A stretch of DNA of 36,264 bases from a virus (IMGVR_UViG_2778261165_000017:1-36264); one strand, 5' to 3'; numbered from the stretch's first letter, positions 1,307-7,184 are shown. The notes: generated by a model not told the origin, from the letters alone. Program-made: numbers and translations.

Positions 1307-3787
1307 TTAAAAATCAACCGGATTCGGGATCAGTTTTTGCCAGATTGCTGAAACGTATTTTGCCTGGTGACGGGCGTCATCCAGTGCATTGTGGCGCACG
1401 CCTTCGAATGGAATAACGGTTCTGGCATCAAAGTCGATTGTTTTTCCCAGCTCAACGATTGTGCGTACATCGCGATCGTTGTGGTAGCGCCACGGGCAGG
1501 GGATGTCCAGACGTTCGTATGAGGTGCGCAAAATTGCGTTATCGAAAGTTGCACCATTACCCCATACCTGAACGAATTTTTCATCTGAGTATTCGTTGAT
1601 GAACTCCCGAAACCGCGAAAGGGCATCCTTCAGTTTTACCTGGTCTGTTAAAATGGCTGCTCTGGCTTCACTGGACTGCTTCAGCCACCATTCGATGGCT
1701 CCACCGTCAGGAACAGCCCCTGTATTCATTGCGTCAGTCAGACTGATAACGATATAAAATACTGGCCCGATTTCCCCTGTTTGTGGGTCGAAGAAAACCG
1801 CACCAATAACCACGATGGGCGCATTGGTGTTGGCTCCCATCGTCTCAAGGTCGATCATCAGGTGATACCACGTTTTGCTGGTGGACTTATATTTATGATG
1901 GCCGGTCACCACAATTAAGGGATCTGCCGTCTCACCAGTTTCATTATCGCTGGCGTGGTCCTGAGCGCTGCCAGCATTCTCCTTGTGTGGATGTTCAGCG
2001 CCTTCCATTTCCTCCGGATCATTTTCCTGAACTTCAACCTGATTCTCTTCATCGAATGTTTCCTGGTATGTTGCGTCGCCCATCGCCGCGCCACAATCAG
2101 GGCAGTTGCCGCCACCGCTCTGACCGCAGGCGGTGCAGACTTTTTCCGGTTCCTGTTGCGCTACTGGCTCAGGTTGTTTCGTTTCTGGCTCGTTTTGTAA
2201 CGCATTTTGGCTGTTTTGTTCCGCTTTCTGGTCGTTCTGTTCCGATTCTTGCTGGTTCTGGTTTACAGAATCGCGGGTTTCAATCCCCTTCACCCATTTC
2301 GGATCATTCGGGTCGCTAATCCCTGCAACAAATTCTCCGCGAGAGGCAGCAAGCAACTTATCGGCGTCAGGCTGGCTGATATTGGCTGCCTGCATAATTT
2401 TGTTTACTTCGTCAGCGGTAACTTTTACCGGCTCTGGTTGTGCGGTCGTGTCAGATGCACCAGTATTTTGTTGTGAACCTGAGTACGTGCCGTTTTTACG
2501 GGCAAAATATTCTTCTTTCGTGATTTCAGTAGCCCCTGCAGCCAGCGCCTTATTCAGACCAGAAAGTTTGTTTGCACGACCATATTTTTCGCCATCCTTA
2601 TCGGTGAAGAGGAAGTAGAACGGCCCCTCACGCTCTACAGATGGTTCAGTTTCCAGCGCGCTTTCATTTTTTTGGGTATCAGATACTTCAGTTTCCACTG
2701 CATCAGTTTGTGCTGCTGACGGCTGGAGAATATCAGCAGTGCTCTGGTCTGTTTCTTCATCCTCAAACACGCCCTTTGTCGCCAGGTATTCAGTGATGTA
2801 TTTGTTCAGCGCCACGGGATCTTTGTGAATGTCGATCGGACGCTCACGGACAAGGCCAAAAATAGTCTGACGGTCGTAGCGAACGGCATCAGGTTGTTTG
2901 CGCATTGATGCGGAAATACGCTTCCAGTCTTCGCGATCTTTGTCGATAACTTCATTTTTTGCCCAGCGATGGATGCTGCCGTCAATGTTTCCGGCATCAA
3001 TATCACCAGGCCAGAAAGCGTAGGCCAGTTCTTCATCCAGTGTTTTCCATGTCTGCCTGTATTCGCGACGAATGACAGCAGTTACGGAGTCAGTTTTTCC
3101 TGCAGAGTTTTCAGTGCCTTGCCGGTTGACTCTGGCGCGGGCAAGATCGACGACGGAATTATATGCGCCACCTTCTTTGCGCTCCTTTTCCATGCGTTTT
3201 TTACGTTCGAGAAAATACGCCTGAACGTCGGGCCATTTGGCTGTTGGTTTTAAATCACGTCTGGCATCGTTGATGTACTCAATCTGACGCTCTGGATACA
3301 TGGCGTTAATTTCTCTGGTCCGGATAATTGCTTCAGCGAGGTGTCCATCAAAAGTCGTCATCTCGTCATCGCCGAGAAGCCCGCTTGCATTGATGACCAT
3401 ATCCACGGTGATGTTTTCATGTGTACCGAACCTGACAAGGACAGCAGCCCGCTTGTCGTCAGATAACTGATTAAAGTTAACAGTTTCTGTATCCGGTTCA
3501 GGGTCGACCGGAACAAAGGAAGCCGACTCCTCATTCCAGCGGTTTTCCTGCATATATTCGGAATCCCAGGAATCGAGAGCAGGGCGGGCCATGCCGGGTT
3601 TATCCTCGCAGACAAGAAATTTATAAGCACAGTCCTGAGCTTCCGGGTATTGTTCCAGAAATAACCAGCTAAATTTGGCTCTTGCCCGGCGTTCGTCGCC
3701 TGCTTCAATGGCAGTGGCCACAGGTTTAGCGCCTTCTGCTGTTGCCTGTTCGTCCGGAATGGCGGCGCAAATAAAGACTTTACTCAT
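1307..3787 (-). CDS. Large exonuclease, RecE/YdfE-family N-terminal region fused to a DnaQ-like DEDDh 3'-5' exonuclease domain (826 aa)
   Basis: C-terminus carries LMIDLETMG...GAVFF and HNALDDARH motifs typical of DEDDh exonucleases; central CxxC...CxxC cluster (CTACGQSGGGNCPDCG); N-terminus MSKVFICAAIPDE resembles Qin YdfE as recalled. Confidence 0.75.
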   Translation of the reverse strand: MSKVFICAAIPDEQATAEGAKPVATAIEAGDERRARAKFSWLFLEQYPEAQDCAYKFLVCEDKPGMARPALDSWDSEYMQENRWNEESASFVPVDPEPDTETVNFNQLSDDKRAAVLVRFGTHENITVDMVINASGLLGDDEMTTFDGHLAEAIIRTREINAMYPERQIEYINDARRDLKPTAKWPDVQAYFLERKKRMEKERKEGGAYNSVVDLARARVNRQGTENSAGKTDSVTAVIRREYRQTWKTLDEELAYAFWPGDIDAGNIDGSIHRWAKNEVIDKDREDWKRISASMRKQPDAVRYDRQTIFGLVRERPIDIHKDPVALNKYITEYLATKGVFEDEETDQSTADILQPSAAQTDAVETEVSDTQKNESALETEPSVEREGPFYFLFTDKDGEKYGRANKLSGLNKALAAGATEITKEEYFARKNGTYSGSQQNTGASDTTAQPEPVKVTADEVNKIMQAANISQPDADKLLAASRGEFVAGISDPNDPKWVKGIETRDSVNQNQQESEQNDQKAEQNSQNALQNEPETKQPEPVAQQEPEKVCTACGQSGGGNCPDCGAAMGDATYQETFDEENQVEVQENDPEEMEGAEHPHKENAGSAQDHASDNETGETADPLIVVTGHHKYKSTSKTWYHLMIDLETMGANTNAPIVVIGAVFFDPQTGEIGPVFYIVISLTDAMNTGAVPDGGAIEWWLKQSSEARAAILTDQVKLKDALSRFREFINEYSDEKFVQVWGNGATFDNAILRTSYERLDIPCPWRYHNDRDVRTIVELGKTIDFDARTVIPFEGVRHNALDDARHQAKYVSAIWQKLIPNPVDF

Positions 3788-3867: not shown

Positions 3868-4071
3868 TTACGGTGCTGTTTTAAGTCCTGCCGGGATTTC
3901 GTTATTGTCCATATGAATAACTTTATCGACCGGATAACAGTTACCGGGAATTTTTTGCTCTGCCGCGGCAGTCATGCATTCTTCCATTGAGTCATGTATG
4001 TCAATAACAAGATCAATCGGTTCACCAGAAACAAAAAAAACAGTCAGAACGAGTACAAATGCCGTATTCAT
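3868..4071 (-). CDS. YdfD-like small membrane protein (67 aa)
   Basis: ATGA start/stop overlap with the upstream dicB-like gene; N-terminal hydrophobic helix (AFVLVLTVFFV); position after dicB matches the Qin dicB operon. Start could alternatively be 4080. Confidence 0.5.
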   Translation of the reverse strand: MNTAFVLVLTVFFVSGEPIDLVIDIHDSMEECMTAAAEQKIPGNCYPVDKVIHMDNNEIPAGLKTAP

Positions 4072-4256
4072 TGCCTGCATCCTGTTTGCATCAGACGTAA
4101 ACGGGCCAGCATCGAAACAATGCATATTTTATTTAGCAGTTCCTGTTCGTGTTTTCTTTTATTAATGGCATCTTCAGTAAATATCTGATTGCTGATAGTG
4201 ACACCAATTTCAAAACAACCTTCAGACGTATTAACGTTTGGTAATAACGTTTCCAT
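4068..4256 (-). CDS. dicB: DicB-like cell-division inhibitor (62 aa)
   Basis: Translation METLLPNVNTSEGCFEIGVTISN...KICIVSMLARLRLM matches DicB as recalled (62 aa); GAGGA RBS 9 nt upstream; lies 175 nt downstream of DicF. Confidence 0.7.
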   Translation of the reverse strand: METLLPNVNTSEGCFEIGVTISNQIFTEDAINKRKHEQELLNKICIVSMLARLRLMQTGCRQ

Positions 4257-4430
4257 TATCGCGTCCTCAACAATGAATTTTGTGATGCGGTGCCTGGTGC
4301 CTCCAGGTGACGTTAACCAGTTAACAATTAACGCCGGATACAGAGAATCCACCCATAACACTGTTTTTAGCTTTAACTGTTCCGCGTGCGCTTAGCCGCA
4401 TTCACCGCATCACAAAATTCACTTTAAAAA

Positions 4431-4483
4431 GGGCGGCAGAGCAGTCACGGAGTAAAACTGATACCGCCAAACGCCACCAGAAA
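4431..4483 (-). ncRNA. dicF: DicF small RNA (53 nt) with U-tail at 4426..4430
   Basis: Minus-strand sequence TTTCTGGTGGCGTTTGGCGGTATCAGTTTTACTCCGTGACTGCTCTGCCGCCC followed by TTTTT matches DicF as recalled, with one difference near the 5' end. Confidence 0.75.
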
Positions 4484-4816
4484 ATTGATAACAGAGGGCG
4501 TTGTAGCGGGGTTGTCACTTAAGCGTATGGTCAACCTGACAACCCGGTGTCCTCAACGGGGAAGGAATAACCCCGCCATACTTACCGCCGCGCCATTTCG
4601 CGGAGTGCCACAACCGGAAGCGCACGGTCGACGAAAATTTAACGACAGGCTATCTATGAACCAGCAACCTCGCCGTGCGCTTTCGCGTTATGCTCTGACT
4701 TTTCAGAGAAATATCCTTTCAGTAAACTGTCAGTGCCGGATGTTCACCCGTGTCCGGCGCACGCACTCCACTTCACCCGTGGAGAACTCCTTAATTACCA
4801 ACCCTCAGGAGGGTGA

Positions 4817-5050
4817 ATGTTAAAATCAACTCTTATTGCTAAATGCCTTTATCAAAATCGCATGGTAAGCAGCATTTCAATAGGCGAGTCTGCAGTTAAA
4901 AGTATTTTCGAAGAGTACTTTCCCGGGCATGATTTTAATAAATGGAATACCAAATTACCGCCAGCAGTTTCAACGCGTATTCTGAAAGCAACTGAAAGAG
5001 CAAGTACAATTCGCGTTAACTATTTCATTAAAGATTTGTGGGATCTTTGA
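4817..5050 (+). CDS. Hypothetical protein (77 aa), opposite strand to the dicB operon
   Basis: Strong RBS AGGAGG 4 nt before ATG; low-GC segment; 3' end overlaps the convergent 135-aa gene by 23 nt. Confidence 0.5.
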   Translation: MLKSTLIAKCLYQNRMVSSISIGESAVKSIFEEYFPGHDFNKWNTKLPPAVSTRILKATERASTIRVNYFIKDLWDL

Positions 5051-5435
5051 TATCCACAGAGCCTAAAGTATGTGCATATGGATGTGCTATTGTGCGCCCT
5101 CGCAGATTTGCATCATTTTCTAAATTCACTGAACGAAACAGGGCATCAACAAGGCTCTGTACAATGCAAAGGCAATCGAAGACTGTCGCCGTTTCTGTTT
5201 TGATTGATGAAAGAACATGGCCATTCACGCAAACAGAAATTACCCGTTTATTAACATCGCTTTCCTGCTTTTGATTATCAGAACCATATAGCCCAGAAAA
5301 AGCATTGCGCACATTACGAACCATATTATCGATGGTTTCTTTTTTGGTGTATGCCGGGTCAATTTTCACCAGACTATCACCGAGAGTCGTTGCAGCAATT
5401 GTCTGGATTTCTTTTGGTAAATCTTTAAATTCCAT
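5028..5435 (-). CDS. Hypothetical protein (135 aa)
   Basis: AAGAGG RBS before ATG at 5435; 21 nt downstream of the ydfC-like gene; low GC; no family recognised. Confidence 0.6.
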   Translation of the reverse strand: MEFKDLPKEIQTIAATTLGDSLVKIDPAYTKKETIDNMVRNVRNAFSGLYGSDNQKQESDVNKRVISVCVNGHVLSSIKTETATVFDCLCIVQSLVDALFRSVNLENDANLRGRTIAHPYAHTLGSVDIKDPTNL

Positions 5436-5456
5436 TATTAGCCTCTTGGTTAGCTA

Positions 5457-5675
5457 TTAACGTGGGTATGTAATCATTCTGGCAATGCTTAGTGCCGCTG
5501 CTTTTTCCAGATTGGTGATATCCTGCTCCAGAGCGGACAGATTTTCAGCCTGCTTAGCCCTGGCTTCATTAGCCCATTTCAGATCCTGCGCTGCATTAAT
5601 TTTCTGGCGCATCCACTCATAAAGTTCATCATCGGTATAGTCTGGCGAGATGATGACGGGTTCTCGTTTCTGCAT
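5457..5675 (-). CDS. YdfC-like protein (72 aa)
   Basis: GAGGA RBS 7 nt upstream; length and position match ydfC of the Qin dicB operon; sequence identity not verified. Confidence 0.55.
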   Translation of the reverse strand: MQKREPVIISPDYTDDELYEWMRQKINAAQDLKWANEARAKQAENLSALEQDITNLEKAAALSIARMITYPR

Positions 5676-5704: not shown

Positions 5705-5833
5705 TCAGCCGTTAGATTTTGCCGAGCTGGAAAGCGCCTGTTTAAACTCACTGAAGCTGAGAGCTTCTTCGCCTTCGGCAAGGCCTTCGAAGTATTCTTC
5801 GTAAGCCTTTTCCATGATTGTGTCGAAATCCAT
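5705..5833 (-). CDS. YdfB-like acidic small protein (42 aa)
   Basis: Hand-translated ORF MDFDTIMEKAYEEYFEGLAEGEEALSFSEFKQALSSSAKSNG, below the 60-aa cutoff of the ORF track; start 2 nt after the upstream gene stop; length matches YdfB (42 aa). Confidence 0.5.
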   Translation of the reverse strand: MDFDTIMEKAYEEYFEGLAEGEEALSFSEFKQALSSSAKSNG

Positions 5834-5834
5834 A

Positions 5835-5990
5835 TCACTCACCTGAGTTTCTTTCCAGCCAGCGACGGGCACCATTTTCGGTTTTAAACGTTTTGCTTTT
5901 GGTATACGTCATCGCGGTGAATGTGCCGTCCTGGTTGGGAAACACGCCGTACACCAGAGATTCATTGTTGCCAAGATCGATAGTATCCAT
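5835..5990 (-). CDS. YdfA-like protein (51 aa)
   Basis: Internal Met of the 80-aa ORF with GAGG RBS 5-6 nt upstream; 51 aa as for YdfA; the longer form 5835..6077 is possible. Confidence 0.5.
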   Translation of the reverse strand: MDTIDLGNNESLVYGVFPNQDGTFTAMTYTKSKTFKTENGARRWLERNSGE

Positions 5991-6273: not shown

Positions 6274-6555
6274 TTACCTAGGAAATTGGCGTCTGGCGTG
6301 GGCGACGCTCACAATTTCAATACTTGAAGTGGCCACACGGTACAGAATGATATAGTTAGGGTGAGCTACAATCTCGCGCAACCCAGACACTCTGTCGCTT
6401 GATGGGTATAAGTACGGATGTTCGGATAAAGCTAAAACACATGTCTCAATGCGAATTTTTAGTCTACGTGCGGCATGGAGATTTTCTTTTGCAATATAGG
6501 CTACGATCTGACGTAAATCATCACGCGCAGAAGGTAGCCATAAGATGGGCAGCAT
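6274..6555 (-). CDS. ParE/RelE-family toxin (93 aa)
   Basis: Translation MLPILWLPSARDDLRQIVAYI...YRV...IEIVSVAHARR has the typical ParE/RelE fold signature; start overlaps the antitoxin stop. Confidence 0.8.
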   Translation of the reverse strand: MLPILWLPSARDDLRQIVAYIAKENLHAARRLKIRIETCVLALSEHPYLYPSSDRVSGLREIVAHPNYIILYRVATSSIEIVSVAHARRQFPR

Positions 6556-6746
6556 CACACACTCCCGTTAGTCGCAGAAATTTGGGCAATGAGATTTTCT
6601 ATTTCTGCCATTGCCTCATCATGGGGAATTGCAGGGCGCGGATCTGCAAGACTTGCAGCTACTTTTGTACGCAGCCATTCGTTGTAGCTGTTTTCTTGCT
6701 CAATGGTTTCAAATTCAGAAACTATAGGCGAAAGAGCAGTGTTCAT
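6555..6746 (-). CDS. Cognate antitoxin (ParD-like, 63 aa)
   Basis: Small acidic ORF immediately upstream of and overlapping the toxin; GGAG RBS 8 nt upstream; 30 nt downstream of the repressor stop. Confidence 0.7.
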   Translation of the reverse strand: MNTALSPIVSEFETIEQENSYNEWLRTKVAASLADPRPAIPHDEAMAEIENLIAQISATNGSV

Positions 6747-6776: not shown

Positions 6777-7184
6777 CTACGCTCGGTGCCCTTTCTGGGC
6801 CGCGAGCCATCTTGCAACAGTGCGATCCATTGACTCTTTTTTGTCTTTCATGTCTTTAAGCATTTGTTCCTGATCTTCCTCTGGAAATGCTCCGAATGTT
6901 TGAAGCAGTTCCCTTTGTCTGGGGCCTATTTTCATGGTATCTGGCACCACAACTTGCTCTTCTTCGCTTGGCGGTAACATAAACCAATACGGGGGAAAGC
7001 CCGTTACGTCTGAAAGTTTATCAAGATTAGCAGTCGATGGACTTGTAATGCCATGAACCCACTTTTGGACTGACTGCTGGGCAACACCTATCCTGCGGGC
7101 TAGCTCTGCCTGCTTAAGTCCTGTTTTTTCCAGCACCAATTTTATTCGGTACGTAGTTATTTCAAGGGTGGTCATTCGCTTCAT
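6777..7184 (-). CDS. Prophage repressor, DicA/RacR-like HTH protein (135 aa)
   Basis: N-terminal HTH (LKQAELARRIGVAQQSVQKWVHG); same length and C-terminal pattern as DicA; divergent from the cro-like gene; no S24 peptidase domain; no obvious SD before the ATG. Confidence 0.8.
   Translation of the reverse strand: MKRMTTLEITTYRIKLVLEKTGLKQAELARRIGVAQQSVQKWVHGITSPSTANLDKLSDVTGFPPYWFMLPPSEEEQVVVPDTMKIGPRQRELLQTFGAFPEEDQEQMLKDMKDKKESMDRTVARWLAAQKGHRA

Follow-up and report, generated by a model that had tools for sequence, protein, structure and literature searches.

The window analyzed here, a 36,264-nucleotide stretch of viral DNA (IMGVR_UViG_2778261165_000017), encodes a dicBF (Qin-type) early-left operon whose genes lie in order on the minus strand, with a gene for a DicA-type HTH repressor (HTH_3; 6777-7184) upstream. 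A first-pass annotation, made from the sequence alone, had given the Qin order ydfA-ydfB-ydfC-DicF-dicB-ydfD, and ORF, Pfam, and Rfam analyses bore this out: ydfA (DUF1391 in Pfam; 5835-5990), ydfB (an ORF at 5705-5833), and ydfC (5457-5675) are followed by a GC-rich DicF leader of 320 nt (4483-4803), the DicF sRNA with its terminator hairpin (4431-4482; Rfam RF00039, 76.4 bits), dicB (4068-4256; Pfam DicB), and a ydfD-like gene (3868-4071; Pfam DUF1482). A paaA2-parE toxin-antitoxin pair (6274-6746) lies to the right of the operon, and a YdaS-like Cro analogue and a YdaT-like gene are also encoded farther right in the window.

Between ydfC and the DicF leader lie two further genes, arranged exactly as the first-pass annotation had read them. 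A 77-aa ORF (4817-5050; phrog_10348, UniProt A0A066QR40) occupies the plus strand, opposite to the operon. A 135-aa ORF (5028-5435; phrog_1363, UniProt A0A0B1MZ52) occupies the minus strand, that of the operon, where it begins 21 nt after ydfC and constitutes the fourth gene of the operon in E. coli. The two genes are convergent, and their shared 3′ end of 23 nt (5028-5050) encodes ...FIKDLWDL-stop on one strand and ...IKDPTNL-stop on the other. The AGGAGG ribosome-binding site (RBS) claimed for the 77-aa ORF is present at 4807-4812, with a spacing to the ATG of 4 nt, which is on the short side. On the minus strand, sequence comparison placed an AAGAGG RBS at 5442-5447, 6 nt before the ATG of the 135-aa gene; the latter depends on the operon promoter.

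Comparison by BLAST with the Qin prophage of K-12 (MC1061), together with the junction sequences, delimited the DNA that carries the pair. Similarity to K-12 Qin ends at 4803 and restarts at about 5438-5446, confirming that a segment of 642 bp (4804-5445), referred to here as cassette A, is extra relative to that prophage operon. It extends from the RBS of the 77-aa gene up to the 135-aa start codon, and it represents one allele of a slot that has the DicF leader as its left-hand and ydfC as its right-hand conserved flank. As in a phage moron, this is extra DNA of deviating GC content between genes that are adjacent in related phages. The accompanying claim that both genes are far more AT-rich than their surroundings held in part: the GC fraction is 0.393 in the cassette but reaches 0.533 in the DicF leader, 0.47 in ydfC, and 0.507 over the window as a whole, in which only 1.2% of all 642-nt windows are as low; however, dicB (0.37) is equally AT-rich, and low GC is not unique to the cassette within the dicBF operon.

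Of 5426 complete E. coli genomes, 648 carry cassette A, as do 12 phage records, phage Evi and the O157 PPompW prophages among them. Empty slots were found in K-12 Qin and in isolated phages such as Tritos, vB_EcoS-689R5, and PhiR42_1, indicating that the cassette is dispensable. At the corresponding site, K-12 retains a degenerate copy of the RBS region of the 135-aa gene (TTAGCTTTGTTGATTAGC versus TTAGCCTCTTGGTTAGC), a remnant for which a deletion in K-12 offers a simpler account than an insertion here and which suggests that the absence of the cassette from K-12 reflects such a deletion. The same remnant, along with the position of the pair upstream of a DicF-like sRNA or terminator in related prophages of other genera, indicates that the first-pass description of an insertion into the operon is probably backward; the segment is probably more aptly viewed as an allele of a standard variable slot.

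In fact, at least six alternative cassettes occupy the ydfC/DicF-leader slot in E. coli prophages. Cassette A, with its operon-strand protein of 135 aa, convergent partner of 77 aa, and 3′ overlap of 23 nt, is thus one of a series that also includes cassettes B (124 aa and 73 aa, overlapping by 11 nt), C (133 aa and 92 aa, 41 nt), E (201 aa and 63 aa, 23 nt), F (208 aa and 69 aa, with abutting ends), and G (179 aa and 80 aa, 20 nt), in each case with the operon-strand protein given first. A seventh variant, D, consists of a single 151-aa gene on the opposite strand, inserted about 100 bp away. The operon-strand proteins of A, B, C, E, F, and G have their first ~55 residues in common and are wholly divergent in the remainder; their small opposite-strand partners are mutually unrelated, each falling into a different PHROG of unknown function. 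A constant N-terminus with variable C-terminal modules, each accompanied by a distinct small partner, therefore occurs in six types, as is seen in polymorphic toxin-immunity loci. Domain searches of the pair found no toxin domain and no delivery or secretion domain, and there is no co-directional immunity gene, the partner being convergent. Cassettes A, B, C, and E share a left border, ...ACCCTCAGGAGGGTGAA(A)TG, where the window has the hairpin ACCCT-CAGG-AGGGT (4801-4814, plus strand) that includes the AGGAGG motif of the 77-aa gene. The empty slots, the presence of cassette A in a subset of E. coli genomes (648/5426), and the interchangeability of the cassettes all uphold the view that the pair is accessory.

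The 135-aa protein comprises two domains. Residues 1-55 (5271-5435, minus strand) form a predicted helical hairpin with the pattern MEFKDLP...ETID..NVR.AF.GLY, and residues ~58-135 (5031-5264, minus strand) form a C-domain, that of type A, with the pattern NG..T..A..D...LE.EAN.SG.T..H. In the AlphaFold2 model, correspondingly, the helical hairpin is followed by a disordered linker (residues 51-62) and then by a beta-hairpin-plus-helices domain (pLDDT 72-88). The N-domain, which is common to all six cassette types, was found only in Escherichia and Salmonella; its DNA is present in 1228 of 5426 E. coli genomes, in up to six places per genome. Homologues of the C-domain occur elsewhere as free-standing proteins of 75-80 aa in Enterobacterales prophages, with 94 relatives across Enterobacterales (30-48% identity) recovered in a profile search and with invariant positions N, G, T, A, D, L, L, E, A, N, G, T, and H. 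Other fusions join the C-domain to a YdfC-like coiled coil (Yersinia) or to a ClpX-type zinc finger (Citrobacter). As judged from these alignments, the 135-aa protein is a chimera of an E. coli/Salmonella-specific N-domain and a mobile C-domain. Moreover, the center of the C-domain has been exchanged by recombination next to a nearly unchanged 77-aa protein, in which G23S is the sole difference.

The 77-aa protein is small and basic, with five predicted helices, and was modeled by AlphaFold2 as a compact five-helix bundle (mean pLDDT 97.3). The name dGTP triphosphohydrolase, carried by the source record for this protein, is an annotation error, given its 77 residues and the lack of a matching domain. 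A lipoprotein or signal-peptide reading of its N-terminus (MLKSTLIAKC) was likewise rejected, since the Cys, at position 10 and with Lys at -1, falls within a predicted helix. Homologues at 55-72% identity, 33 in number and nearly all 77 aa long, were identified in at least 10 genera, including Klebsiella, Raoultella, Dickeya, Xenorhabdus, Salmonella, Morganella, Yersinia, Serratia, Proteus, and Photorhabdus, and an exhaustive profile search expanded the family to 157 clusters at 50% identity, nearly all of 74-80 aa. A scan of species-representative genomes returned four loci only, and IMG/VR scans for the remote relatives yielded no confirmed loci, the one contig being 1 kb in length.

Across genera, the 77-aa gene has a median pairwise dN/dS of 0.18 and the C-domain one of 0.27, the 77-aa protein being the better conserved of the two. 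The conserved length and sequence, these low dN/dS values, and the confident fold of the 77-aa protein show that both genes are real and, by this comparison, under purifying selection across genera. Within E. coli, 43 loci of the 77-aa gene contain 9 non-synonymous versus 5 synonymous variable sites; the substitutions include P36S (9 loci) and G23S (4 loci), each affecting a residue that scarcely varies, if at all, across the family. This polymorphism suggests relaxed constraint on the gene in this species. Rare alleles combine a frameshifted 77-aa gene with an intact 135-aa gene; a frameshifting 13-nt tandem duplication in the 77-aa gene was present in only one of the 643 complete genomes with the cassette.

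Beyond E. coli, the pair occurs in free-standing convergent form in lambdoid prophages of Serratia, Klebsiella, Yersinia, Dickeya, Proteus, and Citrobacter. In all contexts examined from other genera, the 77-aa homologue is convergent and overlapping with a 75-80-aa gene on the early-left strand, and the partners examined are 35-48% identical to residues ~58-135 of the 135-aa protein. Among fetched loci with a complete 77-aa homologue, about 30 of which are non-E. coli, a convergent C-domain gene with an overlap of 23 or 26 nt is present in 92 of 92, establishing the overlapping two-gene unit singled out by the first-pass annotation as a conserved pair. A divergent 78-aa homologue in Citrobacter (phrog_10348, E = 1e-27) overlaps its C-domain partner by 51 nt. 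The 77-aa gene was never seen without a C-domain gene among the loci examined; a C-domain without the 77-aa gene is found in cassette E. The 63-aa partner encoded by cassette E has its own relatives: in Edwardsiella phage EPP-1, a homologue next to cI is convergent, with a 33-nt overlap, with the 121-aa first gene after the repressor, the product of which has a C-terminus 39% identical to the tail of the 201-aa protein of E. coli. In Shigella phage SfII, the homologue SfII_36 lies next to cI, and its convergent partner ORF is unannotated in the record. In Serratia, a PADLOC candidate defense gene (PDC-S42) adjoins the pair.

To place the pair relative to the early-left promoter, operators were located in three prophages only, those of Klebsiella, Serratia, and Yersinia. 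Operator repeats that recur in the cI-cro intergenic region separate cI from the C-domain gene in these prophages (or, in Serratia, a gene following cI from the C-domain gene), which makes the C-domain gene the first after oL/pL in each; the 77-aa gene opposes early-left transcription in all three. After the pair, a DicF-like hairpin with a T-run is present on the early-left strand in Klebsiella, Shigella phage SfII, Serratia, and Edwardsiella phage EPP-1, with that of Klebsiella scoring 29.9 bits against the Rfam DicF model, below threshold. The layout of a first gene, an antisense small gene, and a DicF-type sRNA-terminator seems to be general, with E. coli carrying a version of it. No intrinsic terminator was found within cassette A, and each transcript therefore probably runs antisense into the opposing gene.

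In other genera, the 77-aa gene is preceded by a conserved element of ~70 nt that includes an extended -10-like motif, TGnTAYyCT. The same element is also present ahead of the cargo genes of families D and E, which are unrelated, and therefore belongs to the phage backbone; it may be a promoter, part of an opposite-strand sRNA precursor, or both. RNAalifold analysis of this element from other genera detected a weak 4-bp stem only and no convincing structure. The window keeps only the first part of the element, as the AGGAGG-bearing hairpin, which was rejected as a meaningful RNA structure on the grounds that it is no better than shuffles (z = -0.03). On the plus strand from 4400 to 4816, no sigma-70-like or extended -10 motif was found that could serve as a promoter for the 77-aa gene. 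The E. coli version of this gene has lost the native upstream region; its expression may be poor, or the constraint on it relaxed.

The statement that neither protein matches a recognized family stands for Pfam, NCBIfam, and PADLOC, but both proteins belong to PHROG families (phrog_10348 and phrog_1363) of unknown function. Pfam, NCBIfam, and PADLOC scans of the two proteins and of the partners in cassettes B-G returned nothing significant, and a Pfam scan of 71 remote relatives of the 77-aa protein gave no match. PADLOC-DB 2.0 contained no significant match for the window pair, the B-G pairs, or the Citrobacter pair; two sub-threshold matches, both to a cassette C protein, were at chance level (E of 0.025 and 0.059). 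Sequence-profile searches of the PDB found no relative of either protein, and Foldseek against BFVD retrieved a homologue only. Altogether, sequence and structure searches revealed no toxin, antitoxin, immunity, or defense homology or fold match for either protein. The first-pass proposal that this layout is the one expected of a defense, abortive-infection, or toxin-antidote module is thus supported insofar as the pair is accessory, interchangeable, and conserved, but it finds no backing in toxin, antitoxin, or defense homology or structural matches, and the convergent arrangement is unlike that of type II toxin-antitoxin systems.

Our best explanation, to which we assign a probability of roughly 35%, is that the two proteins are cognate antagonistic partners produced under opposite regimes (lysogenic versus early lytic) by colliding transcription: namely, that the 77-aa protein is an effector and the 135-aa protein its antidote. 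The 77-aa protein and the C-domain protein would act on each other. While the operon is silent, the 77-aa protein would be made from the opposite strand, and the 135-aa protein would be made only once the DicA-type repressor is lifted, when the burst of early-left transcription would shut off the 77-aa gene through collision and antisense pairing. Made in the lysogen, the 77-aa protein would be an effector in conflict between phages or between phage and host, whereas the C-domain protein, made immediate-early, would serve, in a SieB/Esc-like manner, as the phage's own escape factor. In E. coli, the 77-aa gene would be weakly expressed or decaying following the loss of its upstream region.

Several lines of evidence point in this direction. 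Strict co-occurrence, the antisense overlap, the immediate-early position, and the swappable slot suggest cognate partners in opposite regimes, and the divergent Citrobacter pair with the same layout counts for cognate pairing as well. The roles assigned to the two proteins are favored by the observation that the 77-aa gene is never alone and the C-domain sometimes is, and by the greater conservation of the 77-aa protein next to a C-domain that is fused to varied N-domains; the rare frameshifted 77-aa genes beside an intact 135-aa gene display the asymmetry expected of an effector and its antidote. Cassettes B, C, E, F, and G, together with the free-standing family E, are in line with the polymorphic-slot part of the explanation. 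The operators in three genera, the lack of a terminator in the cassette, and the extended -10-like motif elsewhere are consistent with opposed expression, and a role in conflict is in keeping with the nearby paaA2/parE genes (800 bp from the pair) and the PADLOC candidate neighbor in Serratia. Counting against the effector-antidote explanation are the absence of any toxin, antitoxin, immunity, or defense homology or fold match, the lack of a sigma-70 or extended -10 promoter in the 400 nt that precede the window's 77-aa gene, and the E. coli changes at family-invariant positions (P36S and G23S). Furthermore, the recombination of the C-domain beside a nearly constant 77-aa protein argues against tight co-adaptation, the physical overlap partly forces co-inheritance, and the upstream element, being common to unrelated cargo, may belong to a DicF-type precursor instead of representing a promoter.

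A generalization of this explanation would have lambdoid prophages of Enterobacterales harbor a new class of polymorphic convergent effector/antidote pairs, situated between oL/pL and the DicF-type sRNA/terminator. In each, a small protein would act in the lysogen, for example by excluding or aborting related phages, the first early-left protein would provide the resident phage's escape, and transcriptional collision would act as the toggle, with the E. coli modules being stitched onto a common N-domain to give a set of cassettes comparable to polymorphic toxins. We consider this wider proposal doubtful as it stands.

The polarity of the pair could instead be reversed, such that the early 135-aa protein, through its C-domain, would be a harmful host takeover factor similar to Kil or DicB, and the 77-aa protein an antidote to leaky expression in the lysogen. 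The position of the 135-aa gene within an operon of toxic products (DicF, DicB, and YdfD) would suit such a role, as would the resemblance of the constant N-terminus, variable C-terminus, and adjacent small partner to polymorphic toxin/immunity cassettes and the invariant polar residues of the C-domain (N, T, D, E, N, T, and H), which could form an active site. Nevertheless, the 135-aa gene is intact where the 77-aa gene is frameshifted, cassette E has a C-domain without the 77-aa partner, and no toxin-like fold was detected. In addition, antidotes are usually the less conserved of two partners, whereas it is the 77-aa protein that is better conserved here, and the reversed assignment is judged unlikely. 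We are similarly skeptical that there is no protein partnership at all, that is, that independent genes are linked merely by their overlap and by whole-interval recombination between conserved flanks, the plus-strand gene being silent and slowly decaying in E. coli. Mere linkage would accommodate the lack of a detectable promoter for the 77-aa gene in the window, the relaxed-looking E. coli polymorphism with its changes at invariant positions, the exchange borders common to several cassettes, and the independent recombination of the C-domain. It would not readily accommodate the retention of pairing and overlap length across genera at 30-70% protein identity, the purifying selection on both genes across genera, the convergent two-gene form kept in all six cassettes, or the second, unrelated pair family (E), which keeps its pairing too.

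The opposed unit might also act mainly in cis, tuning read-through into DicF, dicB, and later genes by interference or antisense RNA, with the proteins being secondary. Immediately downstream of the cassette is the DicF precursor, no terminator separates the two genes, the pair in Klebsiella, SfII, Serratia, and EPP-1 has a DicF-like hairpin/terminator after it, and precedents exist in P22 sas and lambda OOP, both mentioned by Owen et al. (PMC7067206). Given that the protein conservation, confident fold, and low dN/dS show selection on the proteins themselves, and that the slot is empty in viable phages, a primarily cis-regulatory function appears improbable. A core early function, in which the operon-strand protein would be an N-like antiterminator or a lysis-lysogeny regulator modulated by the 77-aa protein, is judged very improbable. 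The placement of a first gene after oL/pL, followed by a terminator, does mirror the lambda N-tL1 layout; however, the slot is polymorphic and is empty in isolated, viable phages, no arginine-rich motif or N-terminus is apparent in the C-domain alignments, the module is combined with many repressor and Cro types, and the 135-aa gene is the fourth, not the first, in the E. coli operon.

Among known systems, the effector-antidote explanation most directly recalls the superinfection exclusion and escape functions SieB and Esc of P22 and lambda, reportedly described, together with the sas antisense RNA, by Ranade & Poteete in 1993. Both systems are accessory and located in a lambdoid early-left operon; as is also proposed for the window pair, transcription of the opposite strand sets which product is made, and an effector in the lysogen is combined with an escape factor made by the phage. 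In contrast, SieB and Esc derive from one reading frame and sas is non-coding, whereas two convergent protein genes are found here; the pair lacks sequence or fold similarity to that system, and no membrane segments were noted by reading of the sequence alone. Type II toxin-antitoxin systems, such as the paaA2-parE pair in the same prophage region, similarly consist of two small adjacent accessory genes with a patchy distribution, one partner being a modular protein with one constant and one partner-specific domain. However, toxin-antitoxin genes are co-directional, co-transcribed, and members of recognizable families, whereas the genes in the window are convergent and neither product is homologous to a known toxin or antitoxin family.

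Polymorphic toxin/immunity systems, exemplified by CdiA-CT/CdiI and Rhs-CT/RhsI, have in common with the slot a constant N-terminal region and interchangeable C-terminal modules, each with its own unrelated small partner at the 3′ side. They differ in that the partner gene here occupies the opposite strand, the proteins, at 124-208 aa, are tiny, no secretion-related or known toxin domain is present, and the setting is a phage early operon. Convergent or 3′-overlapping antisense control is exemplified by lambda cII/OOP and by the type I toxin-antitoxin system txpA/RatA, in which, as here, the 3′ ends overlap, the transcripts are complementary, and mutual interference is expected; in those cases one partner is a non-coding RNA, whereas both strands encode conserved proteins in the window. 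The slot can also be compared to phage morons and prophage defense hotspots, such as BstA or RexAB next to cI and the P2/P4 hotspots (PMC7067206, PMC13586616), as its cargo is low-GC and dispensable, is flanked by conserved phage genes, and has alternatives at the same site, with the candidate defense gene PDC-S42 beside the pair in Serratia. Unlike such cargo, half of the cassette forms an in-frame fusion with an operon gene and is co-transcribed with the lytic operon, with no terminator of its own found and no promoter of its own detectable in the window. The nearest published context is of a descriptive nature: genes antisense to lytic operons have been noted as typical accessory loci, and two uncharacterized genes downstream of the ST64B repressor, along with an sRNA, are induced with that prophage (Owen et al., PMC7067206).

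Literature searches by accession, PHROG identifier, and topic retrieved no paper on these genes. The pair and the architecture of its slot are thus undescribed in the literature searched, although the broad kind to which they belong, prophage accessory pairs, is already known. The dicBF operon is among the best-studied cryptic-prophage loci. By the measure of N-domain DNA (1228/5426), the slot is filled in roughly a quarter of sequenced E. coli genomes and yet has escaped description in the literature searched, and the pair families are missing from Pfam and PADLOC and lack structural relatives in the databases searched, with the 77-aa family alone comprising at least 157 clusters at 50% identity. 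Should the effector-antidote explanation be correct, the pair would represent a new architecture for prophage conflict, combining convergent genes, phase-toggled expression, and a domain-fused antidote, and would provide a rule for genomic searches: namely, a first gene after pL with a small overlapping antisense gene. The pair also bears on the output of DicF and DicB from these prophages, since early-left transcription must cross the antisense gene before reaching DicF.

A conserved element of approximately 70 nt, of the form ...TGTGCCTG..TTTCACCAC.TCAGGC..GGTGGTATCTTGG..GTTCTCACACAACCAAGAAGG-ATG, was identified immediately upstream of the small opposite-strand genes in the compared prophage and phage loci L013 (Serratia), L017 (Klebsiella), L020 (Yersinia), L021, L091-L103, L109, L114 (Edwardsiella phage EPP-1), and L115 (Shigella phage SfII). 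The element is present in phages of at least seven genera and is common to unrelated cargo, namely two pair families (that of cassette A, the convergent 77-aa and 135-aa genes of the window, and that of cassette E, which encodes 201-aa and 63-aa proteins) as well as the single 151-aa gene of cassette D. Within it lie an extended -10-like motif and what looks like an anti-SD/SD stem, in which Citrobacter and Dickeya show compensatory changes; folding of the element with RNAalifold gave no support for a structure.

In the window, the element is cut down to its first ~18 nt, and an extended -10-like motif, TGTTAAAAT (4818-4826, plus strand), overlaps the start codon of the 77-aa gene. As judged from the sequence, a transcript begun at this motif could encode only a 62-aa product starting at Met16; exactly this 62-aa form is annotated in some database entries (protein entry P0169). 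The same gene is frameshifted in five E. coli loci (L100, L102, and L105-L107) by a 13-nt tandem duplication (GAAAGTACTCTTC) at a site corresponding to window position ~4922-4934. In this allele, found in only one of 643 complete genomes carrying cassette A, the 135-aa gene is intact, but its C-domain core is recombinant and diverged.

Phage SfII (NC_021857) carries an unannotated minus-strand ORF of ~69 codons (2654-2863), convergent and overlapping with SfII_36. This ORF shares homology with two proteins: the 201-aa protein of E. coli cassette E, in its C-terminal module, and the 121-aa product of the first early-left gene of phage EPP-1. In the Serratia prophage, the immediate neighbor of the pair is a 307-aa gene (4713-5636, minus strand) matching the PADLOC candidate defense system PDC-S42 (E = 1e-85) and located between cI and oL, the position of RexAB and BstA. 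In the Yersinia prophage, the early-left region contains, downstream of the pair, a tRNA-like Rfam match of unusual length (3497-3624, minus strand; 128 nt, 38.5 bits).

On the early-left strand of the Klebsiella, SfII, Serratia, and EPP-1 loci, the convergent pair is followed by DicF-like hairpin-plus-T-run elements (GGCGGTACCAG...CTGGTACCGCCCTTTTT). Only the Klebsiella element (3874-3922, minus strand) gave even a weak score with the Rfam DicF model (29.9 bits, E = 0.011). In the window, the Rfam model of the sRNA STnc100 matches the minus strand between DicF and dicB (4224-4433) with 39 bits, below the gathering score of 47, and another sub-threshold minus-strand match of this kind occupies the corresponding place in SfII (2197-2412). 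By sequence, these matches may mark an RNA of conserved structure that lies downstream of DicF-type sRNAs. In three prophages with cassette A or B (L001, L003, and L112), only an 84-nt fragment of dicB remains, and after it comes a Rac-type kil gene that replaces dicB-ydfD, showing mosaic exchange directly left of DicF.

The regulatory region that houses the cassette slot includes a second accessory slot, occupied in the window by a paaA2-parE type II toxin-antitoxin pair (6274-6746, minus strand; ParE_toxin E = 9e-17, PaaA2 E = 7e-21) flanked by ydfA on one side and the prophage repressor on the other. HigB or ParE modules are located at the equivalent place in loci L007 and L009.
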